From: an uncultured Dehalococcoidaceae bacterium
Lineage (GTDB): Bacteria > Chloroflexota > Dehalococcoidia > Dehalococcoidales > RBG-16-60-22
Length of the DNA: 60,759 bases
Direction: 5' to 3'
Assembly (NCBI GenBank): GCA_964545815.1
Contig: CAZJGR010000002.1
Location: 1-60,759, forward strand
Translations under genes and position numbers: made by a program
Notes under the pieces: model-generated
Database searches by the model: none
Seen by the model: the letters and a program-made list of their open reading frames with translations, nothing else
Told to the model about the DNA's origin: nothing
In this document: positions 1,091 through 60,220 of the stretch, piece after piece
Layout of the letters: every line of letters starts with the position of its first letter
How positions within the stretch are numbered: the first letter of the stretch is position 1

Positions 1091-1954
1091 CTACAGCAAC
1101 CTCACGGCCTCGGCCAGTTCAGAATCTACGACGTGGGTGTACAATTGAGTGGTGCTCAGGGAGTTGTGCCCAAGAAGGACCTGTACCACCCTGATGTTAG
1201 CTCCCCGTTGGAGTAGGCGGGTGGCAAAGGTATGCCTGAGCATGTGTGGAGAGAGCTTAAACCCGGCCTGTTCGCCCGCCTTTTGGACGACGTGCCCCAC
1301 GGCCCGCCTTTTCAGGCCGCCTCCCTGATACCCCTTTAGCAAAGGCTGATCGCCGTCCTTATAGGGGACGGATTGAAGGTAGAACAGGAGGGCCTCCTGT
1401 AAGGTGTCCTTGATAGGAACGGTCCGCTCCTTGTTCCCCTTGCCTCTGACTCGAATCTGCCCGCTCTCGAGGTCCAGAGAGCTTCTCTTCAGTCCCACGA
1501 CCTCGGACAGTCTGAGACCGGCAAAAAGCATGAGGTAGATGATCACCCTGTCGCGCCTCGACAGGGTGGCCCCGATCAGAGCCAGGACCTCCGACCCGGT
1601 CAGGACTCGGGGCAAGCGATACTGCGCCCCCCCTCTCCCGAGGGAAATCCCCTCCATCGGCGAGGATGCCATCCATCCATTGACTACAGCCCAAGAGTAG
1701 AAAGCCCTCAAAGCGGCCACGATCCGCCAAAGGCTGGCCTGCGCCAACCGTTGACCCTGGGATGTAATGAATTCCTCTATGTGCCGCGGCGTGGCCATCA
1801 GAAGCTCGCTGTGAGGCTCAGAGAAGATACGTGGCCGGACTCCCCTACTCGCCAGGAACCGCCAAAACCGCGTGACCTCGTAGAGATATGCCTTGACGGT
1901 TTGCGGACTATAGCGGGCCTTTAGATACAAACTCCATGCCTGTAGAGTTGGCAT
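1091..1954 (-). CDS. int: tyrosine recombinase / phage integrase (XerC/D-like)
   Basis: C-terminal HMLRHTFATRLL...LLGHNSLSTTQLYTHV (R..HxxR..Y catalytic signature). Start trimmed to ATG 1954 (MPTLQAW) behind GGAAAGGAGG. Confidence 0.93.
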   Translation of the reverse strand: MPTLQAWSLYLKARYSPQTVKAYLYEVTRFWRFLASRGVRPRIFSEPHSELLMATPRHIEEFITSQGQRLAQASLWRIVAALRAFYSWAVVNGWMASSPMEGISLGRGGAQYRLPRVLTGSEVLALIGATLSRRDRVIIYLMLFAGLRLSEVVGLKRSSLDLESGQIRVRGKGNKERTVPIKDTLQEALLFYLQSVPYKDGDQPLLKGYQGGGLKRRAVGHVVQKAGEQAGFKLSPHMLRHTFATRLLQRGANIRVVQVLLGHNSLSTTQLYTHVVDSELAEAVRLL

Positions 1955-2123
1955 CTTGAGTGACCTCCTTTCCACTGATTCTCCTATTCAGGTAACATGC
2001 GACGTGAGCCACCCCCTGGCCAGGGCGGGGGAACTGAACGTACCCGCTGCCCTTATAACACCCCTCCCCACAATAGATGCAGTTTCCCACGTGGGTGCCC
2101 TTGCCTTTGTTTTCATCGGCCAT
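1908..2123 (-). CDS. small Cys-rich protein (71 aa), possible Zn-binding recombination directionality factor / excisionase-like partner of the integrase
   Basis: ATG 2123 behind CCAGGAGG. CIYCGEGC...HVAC motif. Overlaps the integrase start by 47 nt. The function is a guess from position only. Confidence 0.45.
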   Translation of the reverse strand: MADENKGKGTHVGNCIYCGEGCYKGSGYVQFPRPGQGVAHVACYLNRRISGKEVTQDANSTGMEFVSKGPL

Positions 2124-5857: not shown

Positions 5858-6190
5858 TTACTGGCCGTCCCAACTATCACGAATCCGCTTGACCACCTCC
5901 TCTCGTATGCCGTGAATAGCAAAAGCCTCCGCCAGCCGTTGGACTGGCGGGCAGGAGCCGTCCAGGATGATCGCTTTGAACCAGACCTGATCGGAGATAC
6001 ACAAGAGCGACTGCACCTCCCACTGCCGGTGCCTCATCGCAATTAACACCTGCGCCTGCGCCTCGTTCTCGGCCAGTACCACGACCTGGAGGCATATTAA
6101 GGCCCCACGGCGCGGCTCAAAACTGGTCAAGACGGCGACATATAGATGGAGAGGGGTAATCTGTCTCTCGATAAGGATGTTATTCACCAT
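5858..6190 (-). CDS. hypothetical protein (110 aa)
   Basis: Trimmed to ATG 6190 (MVNNILIE) behind GGAAGGGGG. Confidence 0.55.
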   Translation of the reverse strand: MVNNILIERQITPLHLYVAVLTSFEPRRGALICLQVVVLAENEAQAQVLIAMRHRQWEVQSLLCISDQVWFKAIILDGSCPPVQRLAEAFAIHGIREEVVKRIRDSWDGQ

Positions 6191-6779
6191 GCCATACCCC
6201 CTTCCGCCGTCCATGCGAAGCGGACCCCAGGACATAGACCTTTAACTCCGGCTTGTATACCTGGAGTACGCCTCCCCGTTGAGGATGCGGCCGGGCATGG
6301 ATATAAGCCTGCTTGACCAGGTAACAAATGTGCGCCTCGGTTAGCTCGGTCAACCGCACTGCCTCCCGAACCGTGATCCAATTCGGGTCCTGGACCATAG
6401 CCTCCCTGACCAGCGTCTCGTGGGTTGGCATCAATACCACTACCTCCCGCAGAAGACCCTCAAGACGACGCCTGCGAACCGCGCCTCGCAACTTCCGCAA
6501 GGCCGCCGCCTCAATCTGCCGTACCCGTTCCCGAGTGATCCCCAGGAGAAGCCCGCACTCGTGAAGGGTCAGTCCATCCCCGAACCGGTAGATGACAACC
6601 AGGGCGTGCTTACTAGGCAAGCCCCTCACCCCTTCCAAAAGACACCCCTGGAGGGCGTCACTCCAACCCTGTTGTTCTCCGGCCCATGTGGCCTGTTGAT
6701 TGCCGGGGACGAACCCGCCGTGCGCCAACCGATAGACCAGCGCCGGGTTACGGACCGCGTTCATAATGCTGCTGCTCAT
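6180..6779 (-). CDS. sigma-70 region-4-only protein fused to an excisionase/MerR-type HTH
   Basis: LVVIYRFGDGLTLHECGLLLGITRERVRQIEAAALRKLR closely matches sigma region 4.1-4.2. No region 2/3 is visible. C-terminal WITVREAVRLTELTEAHICYLVKQ looks like an HTH_17-type helix-turn-helix. ATG behind AAAGGAG. Confidence 0.8.
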   Translation of the reverse strand: MSSSIMNAVRNPALVYRLAHGGFVPGNQQATWAGEQQGWSDALQGCLLEGVRGLPSKHALVVIYRFGDGLTLHECGLLLGITRERVRQIEAAALRKLRGAVRRRRLEGLLREVVVLMPTHETLVREAMVQDPNWITVREAVRLTELTEAHICYLVKQAYIHARPHPQRGGVLQVYKPELKVYVLGSASHGRRKGVWHGE

Positions 6780-6830
6780 CTTTTGTACTCCTTTCTTAAC
6801 CTAATTTAATTTGAGTGCCCACTGAGGCTT

Positions 6831-6860
6831 GCCCTGGACTTACCTTGATAAGTCCAGGGC
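6831..6860. repeat. outer-arm hairpin GCCCTGGACTTA-ccttga-TAAGTCCAGGGC
   Basis: Exact 12-bp arms. Confidence 0.9.
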
Positions 6861-6901: not shown

Positions 6902-6920
6902 GCCTACCTAACAGGTAGGC
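6902..6920. repeat. inner palindrome GCCTACCT-AAC-AGGTAGGC
   Basis: Exact 8-bp arms. Contains the stop codon of gene 6904..7470. Confidence 0.9.
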
Positions 6921-8740: not shown

Positions 8741-9604
8741 CTATGACGTGCCCATTTTGTTGAGAAGCGTGACGTCTGCCGCGTTGTGTCGCTTGTAATG
8801 CAACCAGGACGACACCGCAAACACGGAACGCGCTCCCAACTCCATGCCCAGGAGCCCCTTTACCAGCAGGACCGGCTCTATATCTATGCCCTGCCGCTCC
8901 ATCTCCGCATGTAATGACGCGCAGATTTTATCGAGGTTGACTTTGTCCTCCTGGACCTTGTCCAGTCGGTCATACTCGGCCCTGGCGGCCGCCTGCATTT
9001 TGGACAGGGAGCCATACCCCGCTCCGTTGCCTGCCTGCCCGGCCGCGCCTACCTGCCCACCCTTGCCTGGCCGCGCCTTGCGGCGCTCGGCTGCCGCCCG
9101 AACGACCTCCGGACGAGGCTCCTCCTCGCCTTTGAAAACATCCTGGCCGACCCCTAATCGGGAGGCCGCCTTGCAGATGGCGTTAGTGACCGCGCCCTTG
9201 ATGGCGTCGGTCATCGGGACGGCGCCCTTGCGCTTGACTGTCCCCGAGCCACCGTTAGCAACGATCGCCTCAGACCAGACCAGGCCCGTCGTGAACGCCG
9301 GCCGGCAGATGAAGCCCTGCGCCTCGGCCGACCACTCGACCGGGGGGCATCCTGCCTCGCCATCTGGTAGGCGCCATTGCAGCGCTAGCCAGCACGTGGC
9401 TTCTTGACCGTCCAGGATGACGGGGGAGTGGACATACCTCCACCCATAGCCCGCCAGGCCGAAGACCCCATTCAGCCGCTCCAGGATGAACGCGGCTTTG
9501 ATAGAGGTCAGGTTAAACCCCCGGCTGTCATCCACCGACAAAGCCTCGCGGGGGAGAGGCTCCGTCAGCCGGCCGTAAAGACCGGATAACACATTCTTGT
9601 CCAT
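8741..9604 (-). CDS. Rad52/Sak-like single-strand annealing protein
   Basis: LTSIKAAFILERLNGVFGLAGYGW and AIKGAVTNAICKAASRLGVGQDVF resemble Rad52-family motifs. Trimmed to ATG 9604 behind GGAGG. Confidence 0.65.
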   Translation of the reverse strand: MDKNVLSGLYGRLTEPLPREALSVDDSRGFNLTSIKAAFILERLNGVFGLAGYGWRYVHSPVILDGQEATCWLALQWRLPDGEAGCPPVEWSAEAQGFICRPAFTTGLVWSEAIVANGGSGTVKRKGAVPMTDAIKGAVTNAICKAASRLGVGQDVFKGEEEPRPEVVRAAAERRKARPGKGGQVGAAGQAGNGAGYGSLSKMQAAARAEYDRLDKVQEDKVNLDKICASLHAEMERQGIDIEPVLLVKGLLGMELGARSVFAVSSWLHYKRHNAADVTLLNKMGTS

Positions 9605-11051: not shown

Positions 11052-11094
11052 CGTTACCCTCCTTGTAGTACTTGATTTTGATTGCTAACCTGCC

Positions 11095-11136
11095 TGCCTA
11101 CCTGTTAGGTAGGTCTGCCTACCTGTTAGGTAGGTC
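11095..11136. repeat. tandem 21-bp unit x2 (CTGCCTACCTGTTAGGTAGGT)
   Basis: Inner palindromes at 11097-11113 and 11118-11134. Confidence 0.9.
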
Positions 11137-11156
11137 TGCAGACAGGCAGATGACCA

Positions 11157-13153: not shown

Positions 13154-13303
13154 CTAGCCGCATAGACCAACCGGCCCCAGGAGATTGAGCTCACCGTTGC
13201 CCAGGAGCGCCTCCAGGGCTTCGATAAGCTCCTCCGAGAGCCAATCGGCCATGATTTTGACCTTGCCATCCACGATGAGAAAGACCAACTCACGCTGCCC
13301 CAT
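13154..13303 (-). CDS. small ORF (49 aa), possible second DUF2997-like paralog
   Basis: Below the ORF-track cutoff. ATG 13303 behind GAGGAGG. ...EALEALLGNGELN resembles ...LAGLEALLGGASN of the next gene. Confidence 0.4.
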   Translation of the reverse strand: MGQRELVFLIVDGKVKIMADWLSEELIEALEALLGNGELNLLGPVGLCG

Positions 13304-13490
13304 CGCGCACCTCCTCGCTGGCCTGGCCGCCGGAACCTTGCCAGTATTCCGGCTTTAGTTCCGTGTTGGAAGCTCCACCCAGGAGCGCCTCCAGACCGGC
13401 CAACACCTCGGAGATACAGACGGGACCATGACCGCCCAGGACCTCGGCGGTAACCTTGCCGCCCTCACCGATTTTAATGATGATCTCCAT
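13290..13490 (-). CDS. DUF2997-like small protein (66 aa)
   Basis: Trimmed to ATG 13490 (MEIIIKIGEGGKVTAEVLGGHGPVC) behind AGGAGG. Confidence 0.55.
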   Translation of the reverse strand: MEIIIKIGEGGKVTAEVLGGHGPVCISEVLAGLEALLGGASNTELKPEYWQGSGGQASEEVRDGAA

Positions 13491-13671
13491 CAGAGCGACC
13501 TCCTGCAACCTTGATTCTGAATGCGATGGCCCGTAAGGTACGCTCGGACACCCAATCTCCATCTACCAGGTAGAGTGTGACCGGGCAACCAAACGTGCCG
13601 TCGCCATTTTTGAACGTGCCCACCCGCGTGTCTTCCGGCCTGACGCGCTCGATGACTTCCTGCAATTCCAT
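13474..13671 (-). CDS. hypothetical protein (65 aa)
   Basis: ATG 13671 behind GGAGGTG. Confidence 0.5.
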   Translation of the reverse strand: MELQEVIERVRPEDTRVGTFKNGDGTFGCPVTLYLVDGDWVSERTLRAIAFRIKVAGGRSDGDHH

Positions 13672-15291: not shown

Positions 15292-15875
15292 ACTACGGAT
15301 TCCTCGGGCTTATCCACCCGTCAGGCTCTAGGAAGTCGGCGAGCCTCCTACATTTTACGCCTTACCTGACATAGCAGGTTAGAGCCTGGCGGAAGGATAA
15401 ACCGAAACTCCCGCTTTGTGTACGATTGCCATCATTGCACAGTATCCACCGCCGCTGGCCGCATAGTACAACGTACCAGCTATCGATGTAGCATTACCCC
15501 CGCGCTCGGCCTCACGTACCACTATCATCAGGCTGTTTTTGGAAGCTAACTTTGACCTGTTGGTCTATCCCATCTCTCCGAAGAGTCCCCCCCGACTAGG
15601 CGGGGTTACTTCACTCAGAAACTCCATCGCTGGAGGCTGCCTGAGTTGGACCGGTCTCCCTCCGTTTCCACTCTTTGGGAGAGAAGAAGCTTACGCTACC
15701 TTGACACCCCTCTTGTGGCTTACAATCCCCCCGCTTTCTCCGCCATGTTCTCGGCTGTTTCCCCCTCCGCTGGCCCGGTGGCTTTGCGAGTTTCCCCGCC
15801 TCCGTTTCTACACCTGGGCGACCTTCGGGCTGCCTACCCCACTGAGGGGCTTGAGGATTGCTCACTTTTAATTCT
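15292..15875 (-). ncRNA. candidate large structured RNA / 5' leader (~585 nt), class unknown
   Basis: No credible ORF on either strand. Begins ~7 nt downstream of a consensus extended -10 promoter. Minus-strand reading gives these hairpins: GCGGG-GAAA-CTCGC (15799-15786); two-tier ACTCAG..CTCCA-GCGA-TGGAG..CTGAGT (15646-15613); CTC-UUCG-GAG (15585-15576); TCTCCC...GGGAGA enclosing a G-GAAA-C loop (15682-15655); CCCCG-6 nt-CGGGG (15605-15590). A long-range helix pairs 15861-15853 with 15730-15722. A ~24-bp near-perfect duplex pairs 15404-15381 with 15330-15305. Confidence 0.6.
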
Positions 15876-15881
15876 ACCTTA

Positions 15882-15910
15882 ATTATACCAGGTGTTACAA
15901 TTAAATGCAA
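15882..15910 (-). promoter_or_regulatory. sigma70-type promoter P-earlyL (TTGCAT-17-TGgTATAAT)
   Basis: On the minus strand, -35 TTGCAT is at 15910-15905 and -10 TATAAT at 15887-15882. The spacer is exactly 17 nt and a TGn extended -10 is present. Confidence 0.75.
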
Positions 15911-15920
15911 TAGGAAAGAG

Positions 15921-15950
15921 GTACTATACCTCGTACTATACCTCGTACAC
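15921..15950. repeat. tandem 12-mer GTACTATACCTC x2.5 just upstream of the -35
   Basis: Units at 15921-15932, 15933-15944, and partial at 15945-15950. Confidence 0.9.
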
Positions 15951-16026
15951 TGCTTTTGCGAATAACGCAATTACAAATAACGTAAAGGCTGGCCACCTTG
16001 TAGCGCAATAAAACAGCCGCCCCTCG

Positions 16027-16200
16027 TAGGCAGAGCGTGACCTGCAGGACCTCGCTGTAACCGGCGCGACTTGCTCGACTTTGCGCCAACCGGCGTGGCT
16101 TGCTCGACTTTGAGCGGCAGAGCGCCTGACTGTAGTCAAAGGTAGGCAGAGCGCCGGACTGCGCGCGCCTGGATGCAGAGCGCCGGACTGAGGTAGGCAG
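16027..16200. repeat. block of ~29-bp periodic direct repeats (iteron/centromere-like)
   Basis: AACCGGCG(C/T)G(A/G)CTTGCTCGACTTTG at 16059 and 16088. GCAGAGCGCC(T/G)GACTG at 16118, 16147 and 16175, with a degenerate copy at 16031. The region is noncoding. Confidence 0.8.
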
Positions 16201-16310
16201 GCTGCATTTGGTTAGATTGCGCACTTTTAAGCCATAAGCCGTGCACGGCGCCTGCTTATCGCCAACATACCCCCCCCCACTTTACCGTGCTAGACTTTTG
16301 CCCCTATCCC

Positions 16311-16342
16311 CCCCCTGGACTTTGCCTAGTAAGTCCAGGGGG
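16311..16342. repeat. outer-arm hairpin CCCCCTGGACTT-tgcctagt-AAGTCCAGGGGG
   Basis: Exact 12-bp arms. Confidence 0.9.
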
Positions 16343-16344
16343 CA

Positions 16345-16380
16345 ATAAAAAAGAGAGCGCAGATGACCGCGCCCTCTTCA
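16345..16380 (-). terminator. rho-independent terminator of the second leftward operon
   Basis: Minus strand reads GAAGAGGGCGC-ggtcatct-GCGCTCTCTT followed by TTTTTATT. Confidence 0.75.
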
Positions 16381-16398
16381 CTAGTGAAGCCGCGTACT

Positions 16399-16782
16399 TT
16401 ATAAAAGGCCGTCTAGACCATCTCCGGCCTGGCCCAAGACCTCCCACTCTCGGACCTTGCGCCAGTTGGAGGGAGGAGTATTCGAGAACTCGCCCTGATC
16501 TTGTGGGGCAGGGAGCCCCAGCGCCTCGCGGCCTACAATGACCACCGGCGGTGGGGGAGGTGCACCCTGCCGGCCGCCGGGAGCTACAGACCATTGCAGA
16601 CTGCGCAGAAGCACCAGGCCCACGATGGCCAGCGCCGAGATAGCACCCAGACAAGCCCCAGCGCCGCCGATGGCGACGCCTACGACTACCCCTCGCGCTT
16701 GCGTGTCCAGTGAGAACCAGACTCCGACCGGGATGGCCAGACCAGCCGCGGTGATCAGAACACCTGCCAGAAAGCGATTCAT
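16399..16782 (-). CDS. small membrane protein (127 aa, 2-3 predicted TM segments, Pro-rich linker)
   Basis: Trimmed to ATG 16782 (MNRFLAGVLITAAGL) behind AAAGGGGGA. Confidence 0.6.
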   Translation of the reverse strand: MNRFLAGVLITAAGLAIPVGVWFSLDTQARGVVVGVAIGGAGACLGAISALAIVGLVLLRSLQWSVAPGGRQGAPPPPPVVIVGREALGLPAPQDQGEFSNTPPSNWRKVREWEVLGQAGDGLDGLL

Positions 16783-17343: not shown

Positions 17344-17409
17344 TCTGGACTTGCCTGCCTGTGGCAGACCTACCTAACAGGTAGGCAGACAGGTCAAGAC
17401 AAGTCCAGA
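17344..17409. repeat. full nested element (TCTGGACTT / AAGTCCAGA around GCCTGCCTG.. and CCTACCT-AAC-AGGTAGG)
   Basis: All three palindrome tiers are present. Overlaps the stop codon of the FtsK-like gene. Confidence 0.9.
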
Positions 17410-18704
17410 CTTTCATCAACTAACTGCTTTTTGACTGTTGCGATCGCGGCCGCAACACGAGGAGGATTGACGTCTGTCCCATACTGTTCGATATGCCACC
17501 TGCGGACCAACCGCTGCGAGCATTCTCCCGACGTCTGTAACTGCGCCTTGATAAAGGCTAACATCTCACTTTCAGCGATTGCACCAGGCCGACCAGGCCC
17601 GGGCATCGCCAAGACCTCCCGCAGTTCCTTTTCATCGCCCGAACCTGACCCCGGCTCCTTAACCGCGTGACATTCGACCCGCAAGCCGGCCTGCCTGCGC
17701 CCTGTCTGCCTGACAGGCAGGAGGCAGGCAAGATCGCTTTCGTGAACCAGAGCAGCCTTGAAGCGTGTTTTCTGCCCCTGGTGGACGACTAGCATGTCGC
17801 CCAACCCCAGGAGCCTTTCAGCGTTCGAACCCGGCACGCCTAGAGCGATAGAAGCTTCTGCCGCCGAGTTGACTGCCCCGCTGATCCGGACCGGAAAGTT
17901 AGCTCGCATAAGACCGGCCACAACATCGGCGGATGGCCTCTGCGTCGCAATAATGCAATGTATGCCGGCCTCACGCCCACGCTGCACCAGGCGAGCCAGA
18001 CCCACCTCGACAGGATGACCTCCTACCATGACGAGGTCCGCCACCTCGTCCACGAACAGATACAACGCAGGACGATTGAACCCCTGCCTATCCCGCCGCT
18101 CCAGAGTTTGCAGCAAATGTGTCAGAAGCCCTGTAGCCGACTGCGCATCCTTGCAGCAATCCTCCACCCCCCGCAAACTTGACAGCCCGGCCAACTTGCG
18201 GCCCTTGGGGTCCACGAGGAGAAACCTGGCGTCCTGGACTTTTGACCACAAGACCAGAGAAACCAGCATGGTACACAGAAGCTCTGTCTTCCCTGAGCCT
18301 GTCATGCCGCTTACCAAAGCGTGCGCTGCCGTTGGACTGGACATACACAACAAAAGAGGTACACCTCGATTTGACAGGCCCAGGAGCGCGCTTTGCCCAG
18401 GAGGAGCGCTTTTGAACCGGGTGATTACCTGGTTGAAGGGCACCGAAACCCCATCACTACGGGGGACCTCGATGATCACCCCATCGGGCTGGCTGTTGAC
18501 AATAATTTTAGGGACTTGAAGGGACAACGCAATCTCACGATTAAGACCTTCCAGCTCTCGAACCCGCCGCCCTCGGCCCAACTGAACACGATAGCAAACC
18601 ACCTGCGGCAAGATCTCCCCACCCAGGATGCGAACTGCTATCCCGTAGTCTTTGAGAACCTCTTCGAGTCGGTTTGACTGTAGCTCCAAAAGCCTTCTAT
18701 CCAT
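17394..18704 (-). CDS. soluble FtsK/SpoIIIE/TraB-like dsDNA translocase
   Basis: GMTGSGKTE Walker A, LFVDEVADL Walker B, IIATQRPSADVV, LLGLGDMLV. No TM segment. A ~100-aa C-terminal domain follows an in-frame palindromic element. Confidence 0.9.
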   Translation of the reverse strand: MDRRLLELQSNRLEEVLKDYGIAVRILGGEILPQVVCYRVQLGRGRRVRELEGLNREIALSLQVPKIIVNSQPDGVIIEVPRSDGVSVPFNQVITRFKSAPPGQSALLGLSNRGVPLLLCMSSPTAAHALVSGMTGSGKTELLCTMLVSLVLWSKVQDARFLLVDPKGRKLAGLSSLRGVEDCCKDAQSATGLLTHLLQTLERRDRQGFNRPALYLFVDEVADLVMVGGHPVEVGLARLVQRGREAGIHCIIATQRPSADVVAGLMRANFPVRISGAVNSAAEASIALGVPGSNAERLLGLGDMLVVHQGQKTRFKAALVHESDLACLLPVRQTGRRQAGLRVECHAVKEPGSGSGDEKELREVLAMPGPGRPGAIAESEMLAFIKAQLQTSGECSQRLVRRWHIEQYGTDVNPPRVAAAIATVKKQLVDESLDLS

Positions 18705-18705
18705 C

Positions 18706-19509
18706 TTACCTTACCCCCTCCAGAGCCTTGATGTCCCACAAGACGACTACCCCGTCTCCATTGCGACGGATAGCGCCCATGGCCGCCAACTTGCCAAGAT
18801 GCTGGCCGACCGCTTGACGGGAAACCCGCAACCCCTGGGCAACCTGGGCCTGCGACGCTTGCGGATTGCCGGCAAAAGCTTGCAGGACCGCTTTCGTACC
18901 TTGCCCCAACCTTGCGTATTGATTGCCGGCCTCTTGCCTGGCAATTGCCGCGCCTTGCTCTTTGCTTGCTTCTTGCTTGACAAGCGCTTGCCTGGCAAGC
19001 TCTTCCTCTTGCGCTGATCTTTCAGCTACCTTGACGGCCGCTTGCAGGGCAATTGACTTCTCTTGCCTCTCCCTTGCCTTTTCCTTGCGCTCCGCTTGCT
19101 TGTCAAGTTCGTACTTGCTGACGACTTGTGGCATGGCCAGACCAACCGCACAGGCCACCAGGAGCAGTGGGAACAGGAAACCGAGGAGAAGGTTGCCCCC
19201 AAACTCGTACCTATTGGCAATGACCGAAACCGAAAGAGATGGAACGGCCAGCAGGATGAACGCACCCAGGACGGCCCGATAGAAGCGCCGATCTTGCCGG
19301 GCAAGGTTAGACTCACTCAGCTTTTTGCCGACCTCCACGATAGACCAGGCGACCCACGCCGTATAAAGCTCGACCAGGGCAGCCGCAACCCAAAAGAACG
19401 AAGTGTCGTCTTTGGCCATCGCGAAGAAGAAGTTGGCCAGAGCATTGACCGAACAACCGGCAAACGCAACGATGCCGGCCACAGGCAGGACGTCCTTGTT
19501 AAGCCTCAT
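18706..19509 (-). CDS. membrane-anchored coiled-coil protein with C-terminal winged HTH (DUF2637-like architecture)
   Basis: Trimmed to ATG 19509 behind AAGGGGAGGGG. About 4 N-terminal TM segments, an E/K/Q-rich coiled coil, then QAQVAQGLRVSRQAVGQHLGKLAAMGAI. Confidence 0.7.
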   Translation of the reverse strand: MRLNKDVLPVAGIVAFAGCSVNALANFFFAMAKDDTSFFWVAAALVELYTAWVAWSIVEVGKKLSESNLARQDRRFYRAVLGAFILLAVPSLSVSVIANRYEFGGNLLLGFLFPLLLVACAVGLAMPQVVSKYELDKQAERKEKARERQEKSIALQAAVKVAERSAQEEELARQALVKQEASKEQGAAIARQEAGNQYARLGQGTKAVLQAFAGNPQASQAQVAQGLRVSRQAVGQHLGKLAAMGAIRRNGDGVVVLWDIKALEGVR

Positions 19510-19807
19510 CCACCCCTCCCCTTGTTCCGGCCTCTGGACTTGTCTTGACAAGCTCAGAGATAGTCAACGGCCTGACCAGATAGTGACCGGGTGCAACGTA
19601 CTTACACGCATGAACAGCCAGACCCTCCGGCGACTGAAACCCATCAGCAGCCGCGGGCGATAACCAGACCATCGAGAGCCAGCGTCCAATCTTTCTTTTG
19701 AATTGCACACACAGGTCGGCGATCACTTGCTCGATCTGCCGGCCGCTGTTGTCCCGATAGAGTACGCTCGAGGGCAGACCACTAGCTATCCTGCCTCCGC
19801 TTTTCAA
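19499..19807 (-). CDS. doubtful ORF (102 aa)
   Basis: TTG start and no clear SD. Its 3' end runs through the hairpin at 19532-19559 and the next gene's SD. Confidence 0.25.
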   Translation of the reverse strand: MKSGGRIASGLPSSVLYRDNSGRQIEQVIADLCVQFKRKIGRWLSMVWLSPAAADGFQSPEGLAVHACKYVAPGHYLVRPLTISELVKTSPEAGTRGGVDEA

Positions 19808-20018
19808 AAGTACACCCCCTCCAAAAGTACACCCAGGTATACCTGTTTTGCCCTAACCAGTAGGGCCTTTTGCTCACTTCCCTACTAGATATAAGCGGCC
19901 GCAAATGCCGGCGTACCGTTTGCACCGAACATCCAACAGCAAAGGCAATATTCTTCGATGTGATGGGCCAGTTGTGCCGCTGGAGAAAACTGGCTATCTC
20001 AGCCTGATAACTTTTCAT
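19782..20018 (-). CDS. winged-HTH protein (78 aa)
   Basis: ITSKNIAFAVGCSVQTVRRHLRPL. ATG behind GGAGGTG. ATGA overlap with the upstream gene. Confidence 0.7.
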   Translation of the reverse strand: MKSYQAEIASFLQRHNWPITSKNIAFAVGCSVQTVRRHLRPLISSREVSKRPYWLGQNRYTWVYFWRGCTFEKRRQDS

Positions 20019-21344: not shown

Positions 21345-21656
21345 TCACCCCATACTCACCTCCTTGCCCTCATCGGCTAACATGATTGTAAGACCACATA
21401 AGCCGCCCTCAGCGATGCGACCCACGATCTTAACGGGCAGAAACTTTTGAGACCCGAACCGAACATGGAACGGGATAACCAGGCCCGGGTCGAGCATGTC
21501 CTGTTTGAGATAGTCACGAATAGCCCGCCTGGCCTGGCGCAACACAACCCTGACCCGCTTTCCTAACCCTGGCCCTTGCAGGACCTCGACCAGCCTGGCC
21601 GAGAACTTGACCGGATAATTGAACCGCAACCCCTGAGCCGCCTTTGTGACGTCCAT
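21345..21656 (-). CDS. hypothetical protein (103 aa)
   Basis: ATG 21656 shares its A with the TAA stop of the upstream membrane-protein gene (TAATG coupling). Confidence 0.55.
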   Translation of the reverse strand: MDVTKAAQGLRFNYPVKFSARLVEVLQGPGLGKRVRVVLRQARRAIRDYLKQDMLDPGLVIPFHVRFGSQKFLPVKIVGRIAEGGLCGLTIMLADEGKEVSMG

Positions 21657-22498
21657 TAAGTCTTTTCCCCTACCAGACAGCCTGCCGTGGCCAGCACCGG
21701 CCATAGACTGAAAATACCGAAGTAAGGGCTGATCAGAAGCCCCAAGAGTAAGCATAGCCAGACCTCCCTGCGGAAGCACTGGACTTTGCTTGCTAACCAC
21801 AGAACAGGGACAAGCCAGAGAAGCGAGAACGGCCCCAGGAGCCTCCACAAGCTGGCGTTCCAACCCATGTTCATACTGCCGGCAACCTGCAACCCCTGGA
21901 CAAACGGGACGATCCACCACTGCCCTGTTAGTAGATAGTCGGCAAGAGTAGTCACTACCCCCATCATGAAGGGGACGAGCAATGCGCGACGCATCCCGGG
22001 CCAGAAAGCTACCATAAGGAAAAACATCAGGCAGGGGACCCAGGCCAGCTGCGGCTTGAATAGCATTAAGGCCATCCCCGAACCTACCCAGTCCCATCGG
22101 GAGGGCACATACTCCCATCCCAATAAGGCCAGCGTTAGACCGGCCAGAAATACCGCATCGAAAAGGTGCCCGTAGACCAATGCCGGCAAGAAGACCGGGC
22201 TAAGAAGCACAACCCAGGCAGGAGTCCGCCAGACCTTACATGCCCACAGGCAGACCAGGATGTCAATCAGCCAGACCACGATCAGCGCCACCTCCCGAGG
22301 CAGGAGCCCCAGGAGCCGCAAGACCCAGGTGCACGGTACGGGGTACCAGTACCGCGTCACCGAGTACGGTTGCAGAGTCCTCCCGGCCGGCCAGAGGTGC
22401 ACCGAGAAATCGTCCCTGCCCGTTGGCAAGACCATGATCACCATGGCCACCAGCAACCCCAGGGCGATACCCCACTCGATTGCCTTGCTCATGCTCAT
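21656..22498 (-). CDS. polytopic membrane protein (~9-10 TM), possibly GT-C/DUF2029-like glycosyltransferase
   Basis: Hydrophobic segments run throughout. The family call is a weak impression only. Confidence 0.7.
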   Translation of the reverse strand: MSMSKAIEWGIALGLLVAMVIMVLPTGRDDFSVHLWPAGRTLQPYSVTRYWYPVPCTWVLRLLGLLPREVALIVVWLIDILVCLWACKVWRTPAWVVLLSPVFLPALVYGHLFDAVFLAGLTLALLGWEYVPSRWDWVGSGMALMLFKPQLAWVPCLMFFLMVAFWPGMRRALLVPFMMGVVTTLADYLLTGQWWIVPFVQGLQVAGSMNMGWNASLWRLLGPFSLLWLVPVLWLASKVQCFRREVWLCLLLGLLISPYFGIFSLWPVLATAGCLVGEKT

Positions 22499-22862: not shown

Positions 22863-23114
22863 TTACCGGGCTTGAGGAGGGGCTTCCTTGACCGCCTCTT
22901 TCTCACTGGTCAGTCGGGCTTCGTATTCGTTCATCGCTTTGGTCAGGACCCCAATGTCCTGCCGGCCCAACCACTCATCCACAAGCCCCCGAACGATCTC
23001 CGCAACAGATAGTCCTCGCGCCAGGCAGACCAGCTTTAGCAAGCGATGGGTCTTTACAGAGACCGGGATAACAAGCACTGATTGAGATGACCTCTTGACT
23101 CTTTGCTTTGGCAT
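22863..23114 (-). CDS. ribbon-helix-helix (CopG/Arc-like) regulator
   Basis: SVLVIPVSVKTHRLLKLVCLARGLSVAEIVRGLVDEWL. First gene downstream of promoter 23148-23176. Confidence 0.75.
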   Translation of the reverse strand: MPKQRVKRSSQSVLVIPVSVKTHRLLKLVCLARGLSVAEIVRGLVDEWLGRQDIGVLTKAMNEYEARLTSEKEAVKEAPPQAR

Positions 23115-23176: not shown

Positions 23177-23219
23177 TAGCGAAGTATATAAAACTAGTAA
23201 CTTTTACCTCTGTAAACCT

Positions 23220-23243
23220 CTGAATTTATCATGATAAGTCCAG
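23220..23243. repeat. 24-bp element CTGAATTTATCATGATAAGTCCAG (core palindrome TTATCATGATAA)
   Basis: Exact reverse complement of 56930-56953. Ends 5 nt before the -35 of the late promoter. Confidence 0.9.
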
Positions 23244-25784: not shown

Positions 25785-26096
25785 ATGGACCTGAGTATTG
25801 GAGGCATCCCTATCATGGCCGTCATCGTAGGCCTGATTGAGTACCTCAAGAAAGACATTGGAGTGCCGGCCGCACTTTGCCCTGCCTTGAGCATGATCAT
25901 GGGGGTATGCGCAGGCATTGGAAACGAGTTCTTGAAGGCCTGGCCGGTTACCCCTGACTTGCCCGCGCTGATCACCGGCGCAATCGTTGGCCTGGCCCTG
26001 GGTATGGCTGCCACCGGACTTTACAAGGTGGCTATGAAGGTATCAGGTAACGGGAGCCGCCCTGCTTTACAAGGTGGCTATGAAGGTATCAGGTAA
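25785..26096 (+). CDS. holin-like small membrane protein
   Basis: 2-3 TM segments. GLALGMAATGLYKV. The 3' end lies in a 46-bp tandem duplication. Confidence 0.6.
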   Translation: MDLSIGGIPIMAVIVGLIEYLKKDIGVPAALCPALSMIMGVCAGIGNEFLKAWPVTPDLPALITGAIVGLALGMAATGLYKVAMKVSGNGSRPALQGGYEGIR

Positions 26097-26111
26097 CGGG
26101 AGCCGCCCTGC
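26020..26111. repeat. perfect 46-bp tandem duplication
   Basis: 26020-26065 is identical to 26066-26111 (TTTACAAGGTGGCTATGAAGGTATCAGGTAACGGGAGCCGCCCTGC). Confidence 0.95.
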
Positions 26112-26133: not shown

Positions 26134-26781
26134 ATGGCACAATCCGACTCGGCTATACTAGCCACCCCTGCCAGCCCGAATGGGGTAACGACCCTCGGCC
26201 CGTCAAAGAGCAACGGTAACGGCAACCTGAAAGCTCCACCGCCGCAGGAGGTACACGGAGTCATTCTCTACCACTCCGACCCCGCCATCGATGACCGTAT
26301 AAGAGAGGTCCGGTCGCTGCGGGAGGAATACGGCTTTGACGTGTCCTATATCGCTCAGGCCGTTAGAGTGTCGCGCGCCCAGGCGTTTGCCTACCTGAAA
26401 CAAATCAGGCTGGCCCGCAAAGCGTATATGGCCGCGTTTCCCGAAGACTTTATCTCCGGCATGGAAGCGATGGTTACAGCCATCGAACAACGGCGGGAAA
26501 TGGACACCATGCTGCGGCGGGAACTTGGCAAGTCCTCCGGCGATAACAATCCGTCAAACCGAGTCGGATTGTACAAACTGATCATGAGAAACATGCGGGA
26601 GTTGGAGGAACTCTGCGGCCTTTTGGTTAACCGCATTGAGCACGGCGGGGAAATCGCTATAAATGACATGAAGACCGCCCTGGACCAGGCTCCCGCCCCA
26701 CTACGGGAGGCCTACCTTGACGCTCTCGCAGCTGTGGTTCATGCAACAGCACCAGCAGCTAACCAGGGACCAGGCAGTTGA
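26134..26781 (+). CDS. terS: putative terminase small subunit
   Basis: Position directly upstream of and overlapping TerL. HTH-like GFDVSYIAQAVRVSRAQAFAYLKQ plus a helical C-terminal half. Confidence 0.55.
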   Translation: MAQSDSAILATPASPNGVTTLGPSKSNGNGNLKAPPPQEVHGVILYHSDPAIDDRIREVRSLREEYGFDVSYIAQAVRVSRAQAFAYLKQIRLARKAYMAAFPEDFISGMEAMVTAIEQRREMDTMLRRELGKSSGDNNPSNRVGLYKLIMRNMRELEELCGLLVNRIEHGGEIAINDMKTALDQAPAPLREAYLDALAAVVHATAPAANQGPGS

Positions 26782-38941: not shown

Positions 38942-39411
38942 TGGCCAGCGATGCCACCGCCTACGTCATAGAAACCCTCAAGGCCGCCGATTCTGTAACC
39001 GACCTGATCATGGGTGCAGAAGACGGGATTTTTGAGAGTGGTGACCTCGACATGAGCTATGTCGCTCAAGCCGAGGATTCCCGTCGCATCGTGGAAACCC
39101 CGACCAAAATCCTGGCCGTCGTGGTCCAGGATGGAGGAGAGACGGCCACAACCGAAACCCGCCACAACCAGACCGTGAATGTTTGGCTCTATGACCGGCA
39201 ACGAGGCTATGCTAACATCAGGGCAGTCAGGAACGCAATTTACCTGGTCCTCGATGGCCGCACCTCCGCCCTGGAGGACCCGGCCGGCATCCGGACGGGC
39301 ATCCTGGACCTGCACTTCCAGGACCGCTCAGGGCATTTACACGCTCTGAAACTGGCCCTGGATTATGAACTGTTGACCTATGAAGCCACCGTGCATCTGG
39401 ACTTATCCTAG
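38941..39411 (+). CDS. putative tail completion/terminator protein (DUF3168-like)
   Basis: Position upstream of the tail tube gene. ATGA-type coupling. Confidence 0.5.
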   Translation: MASDATAYVIETLKAADSVTDLIMGAEDGIFESGDLDMSYVAQAEDSRRIVETPTKILAVVVQDGGETATTETRHNQTVNVWLYDRQRGYANIRAVRNAIYLVLDGRTSALEDPAGIRTGILDLHFQDRSGHLHALKLALDYELLTYEATVHLDLS

Positions 39412-39420
39412 TAAGTCCAG
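39397..39420. repeat. outer-arm hairpin CTGGACTTA-tcctag-TAAGTCCAG
   Basis: Exact 9-bp arms. Contains the stop codon of the preceding gene. Confidence 0.9.
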
Positions 39421-59838: not shown

Positions 59839-60156
59839 ATGCCGATTAAGGACCCTGACCTTTACCCGCCCGACTGGTGGCGAATCAGCCTGCAGGAGCG
59901 TGTGAACAGCGGCTGGCGCTGCCGGTTTTGCAGGGCCGAACAGGGAGAACCGCACCCGGTCACCGGCTCCAGAGTAGTCCTGACCGTGGCTCACCTGGAC
60001 CACAACCCGCAAAACAACGACCCGGACAACCTGGCGGCTTTGTGCCAAAAGTGTCATCTGGCCTACGATCAGCAGGAACACCTACACCACGCCGCTCAGA
60101 CCAGGCGAAGAAGGAAAGTGGAAGCCGGGCAACTAGAGCTATTAGAGGCCCCATAG
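59839..60156 (+). CDS. HNH endonuclease (phage packaging-associated type)
   Basis: CRFC...VLTVAHLDHNPQNNDPDNLAALCQKCHLAYD. Trimmed to ATG 59839. Confidence 0.85.
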   Translation: MPIKDPDLYPPDWWRISLQERVNSGWRCRFCRAEQGEPHPVTGSRVVLTVAHLDHNPQNNDPDNLAALCQKCHLAYDQQEHLHHAAQTRRRRKVEAGQLELLEAP

Positions 60157-60220
60157 CTCAAATGGGAGAGCAACGGTCTCCAAAACCGTGAGGTGAGGGT
60201 TCGAGGCCCTCTGTGGGCCG
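60147..60220 (+). tRNA. tRNA-Trp (anticodon CCA)
   Basis: Manual fold gives: D arm GCTC/GAGC; anticodon arm ACGGT-CTCCAAA-ACCGT; variable loop GAGGT; T arm GAGGG-TTCGAGG-CCCTC; G discriminator. The acceptor stem GGCCCCA/TG(T)GGGCC needs one bulged base. Overall close to bacterial tRNA-Trp. Confidence 0.7.

Follow-up and report, generated by a model that had tools for sequence, protein, structure and literature searches.

A phased repeat array behind an FtsK-like operon

The window analyzed here, the 60,759 nucleotides (nt) of contig CAZJGR010000002.1 of an assembly assigned to an uncultured Dehalococcoidaceae bacterium, carries a tailed phage that encodes a GpA-type terminase and has tail genes. 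In one of its spacers, between the operon for a soluble FtsK-like translocase and an early promoter that precedes a series of small genes, lies a block of short direct repeats, and all of the genes flanking it are on the minus strand. Read along that strand, the order is FtsK-like operon, terminator (T1), palindrome, G-runs, a copy of the sequence past the early promoter's -10 box, the repeat array, a weak terminator-like hairpin (T2), an AT-rich operator/promoter, leader, and small genes. A first-pass annotation, made from the sequence alone, had described direct repeats of ~29 bp between the terminator of the FtsK-like operon and the early promoter. Both the repeats and their position proved correct, and the block is a real, phased, and recurrent feature of the locus.

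Direct reading and in-register alignment both resolve positions 16030-16203 into six contiguous 29-nt units in exact register, three of type A, two of type B, and one an A/B hybrid. The unit starts given previously were accurate to within one base (16031, 16118, and 16147 should each be one lower, at 16030, 16117, and 16146). The units and the sequences that they have in common are as follows.

16030, plus-strand reading: unit U1, GCAGAGCGTGACCTGCAGGACCTCGCTGT, A/B hybrid
16059, plus-strand reading: unit U2, AACCGGCGCGACTTGCTCGACTTTGCGCC, type B
16088, plus-strand reading: unit U3, AACCGGCGTGGCTTGCTCGACTTTGAGCG, type B
16117, plus-strand reading: unit U4, GCAGAGCGCCTGACTGTAGTCAAAGGTAG, type A
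16146, plus-strand reading: unit U5, GCAGAGCGCCGGACTGCGCGCGCCTGGAT, type A
16175, plus-strand reading: unit U6, GCAGAGCGCCGGACTGAGGTAGGCAGGCT, type A
U2 and U3: type B consensus, AACCGGCGYGRCTTGCTCGACTTTG
U4-U6: type A core, GCAGAGCGCC(T/G)GACTG
16117-16132, 16146-16161, and 16175-16190, plus strand: type A cores, with an imperfect 7-1-7 dyad, CAGAGCG-C-CGGACTG, read from the sequence
16059-16116, minus strand: type B units, GC(G/T)CAAAGTCGAG and then, after 9 nt, CAAG(T/C)C(G/A)CG

Identity at a lag of 29 nt is 0.586 across the array, compared with 0.366±0.022 for the best lag in shuffled sequence (the null being the maximum over lags 5-69 in 5000 first-order Markov shuffles). None of the 5000 shuffles reached the observed value, and the phasing of the six units lies ~10 standard deviations over the null (z 10.0). 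Periodicity of comparable strength occurs at only three other sites in the 60.7-kb window, at ~46 kb (a coding repeat), ~18.9 kb (a repeat within a gene), and 57.7 kb (33-bp repeats). A general repeat search recovered the three type A units, and the tandem-repeat finder TRF reported only 2.1 copies, at 16146-16206, because the units have diverged. Window-wide, the type B 25-mer has two matches (0.00 expected), both in the array, and the type A 16-mer has three at no more than one mismatch, all of them inside the array. Two further assemblies of this phage, which come from other samples, carry the block at 100% identity; one of these breaks within the block, the usual assembler behavior at repeats.

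The two type B units are identical at 25 of 29 positions. U1 begins with 8 nt of type A and is type B-like in the remainder (15/29 identical to U2); otherwise, identity between the two types is at the random level (6-8 of 29), and the six units hold exact register despite divergence of up to ~75%. The type A units are divided internally in a way that is informative. Their 16-nt core is identical at 47 of 48 bases and the other 13 nt are at random level, so that variable sites number one of 16 in the core and 12 of 13 in the remainder. For a 16-nt block, no more than one variable site has a probability of 3e-6, which rises to 9e-5 once every rotation is allowed for. Neutral decay of a tandem duplication would scatter changes evenly, and we therefore take the split between core and remainder to reflect constraint on the core.

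The block is noncoding

The first-pass annotation described the block as noncoding, and it is. The open reading frame (ORF) at 15901-16224 on the minus strand has a codon log-likelihood of -0.05 per codon, compared with +0.08 to +0.33 in neighboring genes; its GC content is flat over codon positions, and the frame would span the early promoter. No ORF across the block has a Pfam or PHROG match, and no gene is called over it in an independent assembly of the same phage (L220). A protein-coding gene was rejected on these grounds, that is, negative codon scores, flat GC at third codon positions, no family match, and no call on L220. A structured RNA or known RNA family was rejected as well: the block folds no better than shuffled sequence (z +0.85 for the minus strand and -0.61 for the plus strand), and Rfam has no match for it in 15300-16500, even at E<=10. 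CRISPR repeats are 28-37 nt long with a conserved hairpin and are separated by spacers of ~30-40 nt, or else match a CRISPR repeat of the host. By the first of these standards the block is neither a CRISPR array nor a set of solitary repeat units, as its units are contiguous without spacers and no unit-level hairpin is kept across copies.

One resemblance to an RNA gene requires comment. The type A core, read on the plus strand, is identical to the tRNA-Asn segment that starts on the 3' side of the D-stem and ends at anticodon position 34, and GGCAGAGCGCCTGACTGT (18 nt, the U4 core plus one base on either side) is identical to a phage tRNA-Asn. The 16-mer has 49 exact matches in IMG/VR, 12 of which are in tRNA genes (9 Asn, 1 Pro, 1 Ile, and 1 His), and the flanking GGTAG looks D-loop-like when read from the sequence. 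Type A units could thus be conceived of as derived from, or imitating, the D-stem and anticodon-stem segment of tRNA-Asn, whether as a phage tRNA gene that decayed and was amplified, as an identity segment of the att type, or as a decoy. We regard such an origin as very improbable. ARAGORN and Rfam find no tRNA in 15300-16500, again even at E<=10, the likeness ends after 18 nt, and the type B units have nothing in common with tRNA. The locus is free of tRNA genes in the relatives, and the integrase gene (1091-1975) and the sole tRNA gene of the window (tRNA-Trp, 60147-60219) are ~15 kb off. The tRNA segment found in a phage att site is normally the 3' part rather than the 5' part. A tRNA gene as such was rejected for want of a detectable cloverleaf; the identity over 16-18 nt is real and is probably coincidental.

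Arrays of similar period in orthologous spacers

A search of the phage collection at the DNA level gave no match, and a word-seeded search with the adjacent 173/127-aa protein found no homolog (the other contigs recovered were the same phage, with an identical block). The FtsK-like protein has ~25 full-length relatives at 45%-51% identity, and the contigs of 12 of these were retrieved through protein-cluster look-ups. Beyond the protein clusters, searches of INPHARED, IMG/VR, JGI metagenome contigs, and GTDB genomes yielded no FtsK closer than ~40% identity. Gene order in the relatives matches that of the window from the terminase to the DUF1257/AAA operon, the translocase operon included, and the proteins are ~50% identical. 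The last gene ahead of the spacer is homologous in all relatives, and the spacer is therefore orthologous. Every spacer has the terminator, a G-run followed by TA, the operator/promoter, and the purine-rich leader, and spacer length ranges among relatives from ~95 to ~800 bp.

An objective periodicity scan covered eight orthologous spacers, with the following results (array coordinates are those of the respective contigs).

Window: best lag 29, z 10.0
L059: best lag 28, z 10.6; 28-bp unit ACCGAAAGTRCCGRCATTTGCCGCTTCA; array and word clusters at 13186-13270 and 13414-13600
L305: best lag 28, z 14.1; array at 9235-9320, 28-bp unit CATGCAGTCGGSCACACTCYCACGTAGY
L054: best lag 28, z 2.3, marginal, with G-runs
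L052, L057, and L058: no significant lag, z -0.3 to 1.5
L056: contig cut, 24-bp repeat seen at the contig end (12975-13017)

The units of the window occur in none of the relatives' spacers, and those of L305 and L059 are unrelated to each other and to the window's units, apart from short words. The words in common with the L305 and L059 units are GCAGTCnGG (type A) and AAAGT and CGCAAAGTCRAG (type B), the last of which is present in both the type B units and the orthologous spacer of L059. That spacer also has clusters of CGCAAAGTC(G/A)AG and of GGTCGG. The occurrence of the same 28- to 29-bp period, in unrelated sequences and at the orthologous spot in three lineages, suggests a common footprint or geometry. 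The periodicity that had been proposed as something to look for in related phages is thus found in two of them, L059 and L305, and is missing from L052, L057, and L058. These last three keep the flanking genes, and relatives of just this kind, with intact flanks and no repeats, were what the first-pass annotation had named as evidence against its proposal; to that extent its own counterevidence exists in part. Because the array is missing in three syntenic relatives, it is accessory and lineage-variable, and the conserved functions of the flanking operons do not depend on it.

When IMG/VR was scanned with the conserved operator TAGTACnAnAGTACTATTG, 33 loci were recovered, and the G-run architecture was missing from all of them. 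We considered these as possible relatives and rejected them as unrelated elements that have a palindromic operator in common, some with classical iterons. In two of the contigs scanned, L327 (5060-5200) and L334 (12000-12240), a palindromic operator, TAGTACAAAAGTACTATTGAGAATGA, stands ahead of a gene, with classical iterons (e.g., GGAAAGCATCACAAACT, in about six copies) 100-340 bp upstream; their sequence and context are unlike those of the window.

The best identity of the window phage's large terminase (TerL) in INPHARED is 24%, and that of its FtsK-like protein to any isolate is 32%. The lineage is uncharted and without a cultured relative, and its control region between two early operons is laid out with great regularity. 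Judging by the nearest cellular homologs only, the host is probably among the Chloroflexota/Anaerolineae.

Organization of the spacer and flanking genes

The features around the array, in minus-strand order, are listed below.

17394-18704, minus strand: soluble FtsK-like translocase, 436 aa, with alpha and beta motor domains, a C-terminal GRP motif, and three helices
16892-17419, minus strand: DUF488 protein, same operon as the translocase
16399-16782/16920, minus strand: last operon gene, small protein, membrane protein-like by eye
16350-16379, minus strand: strong intrinsic terminator T1, 13-bp stem followed by a T-run, 20 nt past the last operon gene
16311-16342, no strand assigned: copy of the dispersed palindromic element (perfect inverted repeat), CCCCCTGGACTT-N8-AAGTCCAGGGGG
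16308-16315 (C8) and 16270-16278 (C9), in plus-strand letters: two G-runs on the coding (minus) strand, the C9 run followed by TA
16215-16230, minus strand: TTAAAAGTGCGCAATC, identical at 15 of 16 positions to 15856-15871, the stretch following the early promoter's -10 box
16008-16037, minus strand: weak terminator-like hairpin T2, 5-6 pairs, followed by CTGTTTTATT (a T-run); overlaps the start of U1
15870-16010, minus strand: AT-rich segment, 38% GC against a background of 58%, holding the operator-like repeats and the early promoter
15921-15944, minus strand: operator-like repeats, GTACTATACCTC twice
15905-15910 (TTGCAT) and 15882-15887 (TATAAT), minus strand: early promoter with a 17-nt spacer, TGGTATAAT (TGnTATAAT)
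~15530-15870, minus strand: purine-rich stretch
Purine-rich stretch in relatives: L052, 12090-12470; L054, 13880-14300; L058, 13560-13960; L059, 13950-14280; L057, 12525-12810

The translocase matches Pfam FtsK_SpoIIIE (5.5e-24) and FtsK_alpha, and the FtsK motor in the PDB (2e-58). Terminators equivalent to T1 are present in all relatives. The most conserved feature of the spacer is the G-run (G7-G13) followed by TA, which stands directly past the operon terminator in all eight phages; GGGGG occurs 54 times in the spacers, where three are expected, again in 8/8. The context of the G-run is often G-quadruplex-prone (e.g., CAGGGCGGGCAGGGCAGGGGGCGGG at L059 13381-13405). The operator and promoter, TAGTAC..AGTACTATTGAC..17 nt..TATAAT, are conserved in 7/7 aligned sequences. 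Past the promoter the leader runs for ~350 nt and is 63% purine in the window (63%-70% in the six phages examined), and the genes beyond it are small genes and then DUF1257, DUF2997, an AAA ATPase, and DUF3150. Across the group, a strong promoter (extended -10, TAGTAC..AGTAC operator) precedes an untranslated, T-poor, purine-rich stretch of 350-450 nt, and in most relatives this leader ends in a T7 run ahead of the first gene. The stretch is a candidate long noncoding RNA or R-loop-forming transcript.

On the coding strand, T1 and T2 enclose the block, and the 15/16 copy at 16215-16230 lies just upstream of it. This arrangement would suit an element acting at the RNA level, either a minus-strand small RNA or a read-through tail of the operon between the two terminators, with motifs that bind or sponge a factor. 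We consider this quite improbable, given that the scan turned up nothing promoter-like upstream on the minus strand, that neither strand folds better than shuffles and Rfam is silent, as noted above, and that T2 is weak and both it and the duplication at 16215-16230 are missing from the relatives.

The same neighborhood invites comparison with replication origins. Typical iterons are 17-22 bp long, are spaced at ~22 bp (two helical turns), and lie beside or inside the gene of their initiator. Like Rep iterons or the incA repeats of P1, the array is made up of tandem phased repeats with a conserved core and variable spacer beside an AT-rich region, is lineage-specific in sequence, and could titrate a protein. 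With the 38%-GC segment and a conserved strong promoter adjoining, G-runs in 8/8 phages, and a purine-rich leader in 6/6, the array might be read as the iterons of a second replication origin, in which the repeats are joined by an AT-rich unwinding region, a G-run, and a promoter whose purine-rich transcript primes through an R-loop. We find this reading scarcely credible. The spacing is 29 bp and not ~22 bp, and the array's neighbors are a small membrane protein and unannotated small ORFs rather than an initiator gene. There is no DnaA box within 700 bp (the genome-wide count is that expected by chance); an AT-rich segment does adjoin the array (15870-16010), but it is the promoter region. 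A separate module at 57.3-59.4 kb contains a gene with internal 33-bp repeats, a candidate initiator 41 kb away from the array, and a DnaC/IstB-like loader. Moreover, arrays are missing in half of the relatives and the G-run, promoter, and leader are universal, so the conserved part of any origin here is not the array. The suggestion of origin iterons was not supported.

Comparison with partition and transfer sites

The suggestion of a ParB/parS system also fell away. The array consists of direct repeats and is not palindromic (the one exception is the type A core, an imperfect 7-1-7 dyad), and no ParBc domain was found in the 40 ORFs scanned. Centromeres built from direct repeats (R1 parC, F sopC, and pSK41 parC) resemble the array in having phased repeats that would build a wrapped nucleoprotein complex, and relatives of the window phage encode an actin-like (ALP/ParM-type) ATPase and a ParG-like ribbon-helix-helix (RHH) protein. 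A type II centromere is located ahead of the parM operon, whose promoter it overlaps. The array, unlike type II parC, is at the downstream end of an operon, and the window phage has no ALP gene. The divergent promoter region upstream of the RHH gene has a conserved palindromic operator and no tandem array in any of ten phages. All of the relatives have the actin-like ATPase gene after the ParG-like RHH gene; the window keeps the RHH gene, has no ALP homolog, and at 21345-22498 contains two ORFs that overlap in different frames and match no family.

The transfer locus of Streptomyces plasmids, clt, is the comparison that the neighboring gene brings to mind. In clt, direct repeats of 5-9 bp (such as the 8-bp TRS) are recognized by the translocase (PMC4447253, PMC3583192). 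As there, the array is a noncoding repeat cluster at the downstream end of the transcription unit of an FtsK-like double-stranded DNA translocase, and its sequence differs widely between related elements; in clt the reader is the C-terminal domain of the translocase. There are also differences. Units are 29 bp long rather than 5-9 bp; short words do recur within them, AAGTCGAG twice, and AAGTC is enriched in pooled spacers, though it is not present in type A units. The clt locus abuts or overlaps the tra gene, whereas the array is about 1.2 kb away (1.19 kb past the translocase stop at 17394), beyond two further genes. TraB and TraA are anchored in the membrane, and the phage protein begins at the FtsK alpha domain (Pfam residues 6-81) with no N-terminal membrane segment. 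Finally, clt belongs to conjugative plasmids or actinomycete integrative and conjugative elements (AICEs) of mycelial actinomycetes, not to tailed phages. Nor does the translocase appear to have the reader: its C-terminal 85 aa (17397-17651) contain the GRP motif and three helices and no wing in two structure models, with no Ftsk_gamma match in Pfam, no sequence match in the PDB, and no significant Foldseek match (best E 0.39). An FtsK gamma or TraB-type winged helix was accordingly not supported, and the proposal of a clt for a TraB-like translocase could not be sustained.

A looser form of the idea is that the array is a loading or recognition site, clt- or KOPS-like, read by the C-terminal helical domain of the soluble translocase. 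Arrays stand at the 3' end of the translocase operon in the window, L059, and L305, much as the clt cluster of short direct and inverted repeats lies beside tra and is bound by the translocase C-terminus (PMC4447253, PMC3583192). The C-terminal GRP motif and three-helix domain are conserved and have weak helix-turn-helix (HTH)-type Pfam matches, and AAGTC is strand-specific in the pooled spacers (17 observed, 1.7 expected, and 1 on the other strand). In addition, the dispersed word AAGTCCAG occurs at 7 times its expected frequency across the genome, for the most part in the same orientation as the two diverging arms of transcription. However, the C-terminal domain is, as described, unmatched to FtsK gamma, and the sequence of its putative recognition helix, CSQRxLRxWH, hardly varies within the family although the array sequences are wholly different, which argues against its reading the arrays. 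Half of the relatives have the translocase and no array. Type A and L305 units score nothing on a AAGTCCAG matrix, and the orientation bias of AAGTCCAG is only ~2:1. On balance, we think that such a site is improbable.

KOPS is an 8-bp motif, skewed in orientation toward a dif-type site and read by the FtsK gamma domain. In the window, AAGTCNAG occurs 39 times (5.5 expected), is co-oriented with the diverging arms in about two thirds of cases, and is often palindromic. Being intergenic and near start codons, AAGTCCAG fits a signal for transcription or translation better than KOPS. A broader proposal would treat the 28- to 29-bp arrays as handling sites of a phage DNA-pumping or segregation module, in which the soluble FtsK-like translocase would work with or without an actin-like ATPase and an RHH adaptor, and oriented AAGTCCAG boxes would be KOPS-like guides toward the end with the Xer-like recombinase. 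We give this proposal little credence.

The element that contains AAGTCCAG merits description in its own right. It is intergenic, of the form CTGnnnTT-N8-(T)AAGTCCAG, with perfect copies at 2892-2923, 6826-6857, 16311-16342, and 39389-39420 and a variant between divergent promoters at ~23210-23240. It usually stands 12-25 nt ahead of a start codon, in many cases overlapping the TAA stop that comes before, and is also found in L054, L057, L058, and L059, being common to the whole phage group. Among the dispersed operator-type sites of temperate phages, the "stoperators" of mycobacteriophage L5 and the dispersed centromere sites of N15 are the nearest analogs of this (T)AAGTCCAG element, not of the 29-bp array: like them, it is short, over-represented, intergenic, near start or stop codons, and mostly co-oriented with transcription. 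It looks like an operator or stoperator-type site or a phage-specific promoter. The array is not made up of degenerate copies of it. A position weight matrix trained on 46 copies of AAGTCCAG outside the spacers matches one type B unit weakly (unit R5, score 7.7) and no type A or L305 unit, and the possibility that each 29-bp unit is a degenerate full palindromic element was rejected by eye, as the left halves fail to match.

Candidate binding proteins

The window encodes four speculative candidates for a protein that would bind the array. Two are specific to the window phage and two, the ParG-like RHH protein and the C-terminal helical domain of the translocase described above, are family-wide.

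18706-19551, minus strand: MarR-like winged-helix (wHTH) protein, MarR_2 and HTH_24 matches at residues 220-264
19782-20018, same operon as the wHTH protein: 78-aa HTH protein
22863-23114: ParG-like RHH protein, family-wide

None of the four could be linked to the block. Among ten phages compared, the wHTH protein is found in the window phage only; a single genomic context of its homologs elsewhere was examined (L306) and is without such repeats. Its N-terminal part shows a periodicity of 54 nt (18 aa) at 18880-19100. The 78-aa HTH protein has no homolog in the nine relatives compared.

A tentative reading and its main rival

The reading that we prefer, and hold only tentatively, is that the array is a lineage-specific, accessory set of iteron-like protein-binding sites in a conserved control region, with a putative binder encoded by the phage. 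Of the labels attached to the block earlier (clt-, parS-, or iteron-like), the iteron-like, protein-binding one is thus the best available, although the block shows the defining features of no named family. It gains support because of the pattern of conserved core and random spacer, and because of the independent 28-bp arrays in two distant relatives. That a protein binds the array, which protein it is, and what the complex does are all points that we infer.

In outline, a sequence-specific DNA-binding protein of the phage would bind one copy per unit, with two types of core, and the imperfect 15-bp dyad of the type A core would suit an HTH dimer. As 29 bp is about 2.8 helical turns, successive binders would rotate around the helix, so that a loaded array would be wrapped or spiral rather than one-faced. 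The most probable effect would be a local one, either control or insulation of the early promoter or storage of a regulator pool.

Several observations weigh against the iteron-like reading. A spacing of 29 bp does not amount to an integral number of helical turns, in contrast to that of most characterized iterons and centromere repeats, and the type B units have no clear dyad symmetry kept in both copies. The distance from array to promoter is ~85-260 bp in the window, ~75-160 bp in L305, and ~640 bp in L059, and this variability is awkward for a fixed upstream activating site. A binder search based on the presence and absence of gene families relative to arrays found no family that co-varies cleanly. 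Part of the block consists of words that are common in the intergenic DNA of the phage, and it could thus be a patchwork produced by recombination. GGTAGGCAG is present three times inside the block or at its edges, and the related GTAGGCAG occurs 15 times in the window (two expected). Another word over-represented genome-wide, AAGTCGAG, occurs twice inside array units, with AAGTCGCG and AAGCCACG variants 9 nt further on. Lastly, L052, L057, and L058 have no array and keep the flanking genes, terminator, G-run, operator, and promoter.

Some of these observations are just what would be expected under the main rival, a neutral minisatellite that arose by slippage or illegitimate recombination in a hypervariable spacer, partly from dispersed words, and has no function. 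The three array-free relatives with all flanks kept, the lack of conservation of unit sequences between phages, the copies of GGTAGGCAG and AAGTCGAG in the block, and the variation in spacer length all speak for it. However, a conserved core with a random spacer (P≈9e-5) is not expected from neutral decay, the 28- to 29-bp period arose at the same spot in three lineages, and six units are in exact register despite ~75% divergence. We judge the minisatellite to be unlikely, and prefer to see in the array a set of binding sites.

Other features of the window

A second dispersed intergenic hairpin, CTGCCTACCTGTTAGGTAGG(T/C)CTGCC, has half-copies that are equal to GGTAGGCAG. It is found at 6915, 8578, 11094-11139, 13064, 17381, 21315, 29538, and 48143; assemblies of the window phage break at these hairpins, and L220 ends at one. 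Directly upstream of the probable small terminase gene (26134-26781), positions 26019-26111 are a perfect 46-bp tandem duplication (2.0 copies, 100%), which may be related to cos or pac or may be an assembly artifact at genome ends.

A sigma-region-4 protein is encoded at 6180-6779. The recombinase near the left end of the window (1091-1975, minus strand) is XerC/D-like, a tyrosine recombinase with a SAM-like N-terminal domain and no arm-binding domain. The sole tRNA gene (60147-60219, plus strand) is near the right end, and would be close to the convergence of the transcription arms if the genome is circular. These ends are likely to be an att or dif-like region. The window ends have no terminal repeat in common.

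Implications

Translocases of the FtsK/SpoIIIE type are common in phage genomes and are classed in PHROGs under "moron / host takeover," with no cis site or role defined. If the arrays were handling sites of a DNA-pumping or segregation module, they would be the tailed-phage counterpart of clt or of a centromere, and the first defined recognition site for the widespread FtsK-like proteins of phages. Whichever reading is correct, the array offers a concrete fragment of 174 bp and a short list of candidate binders. Should no binder emerge, the block would be an example of the turnover of repeat arrays in phage spacers. A binder, if found, would clarify how the early promoter is controlled, how the phage genome is handled or partitioned, or what the translocase recognizes.

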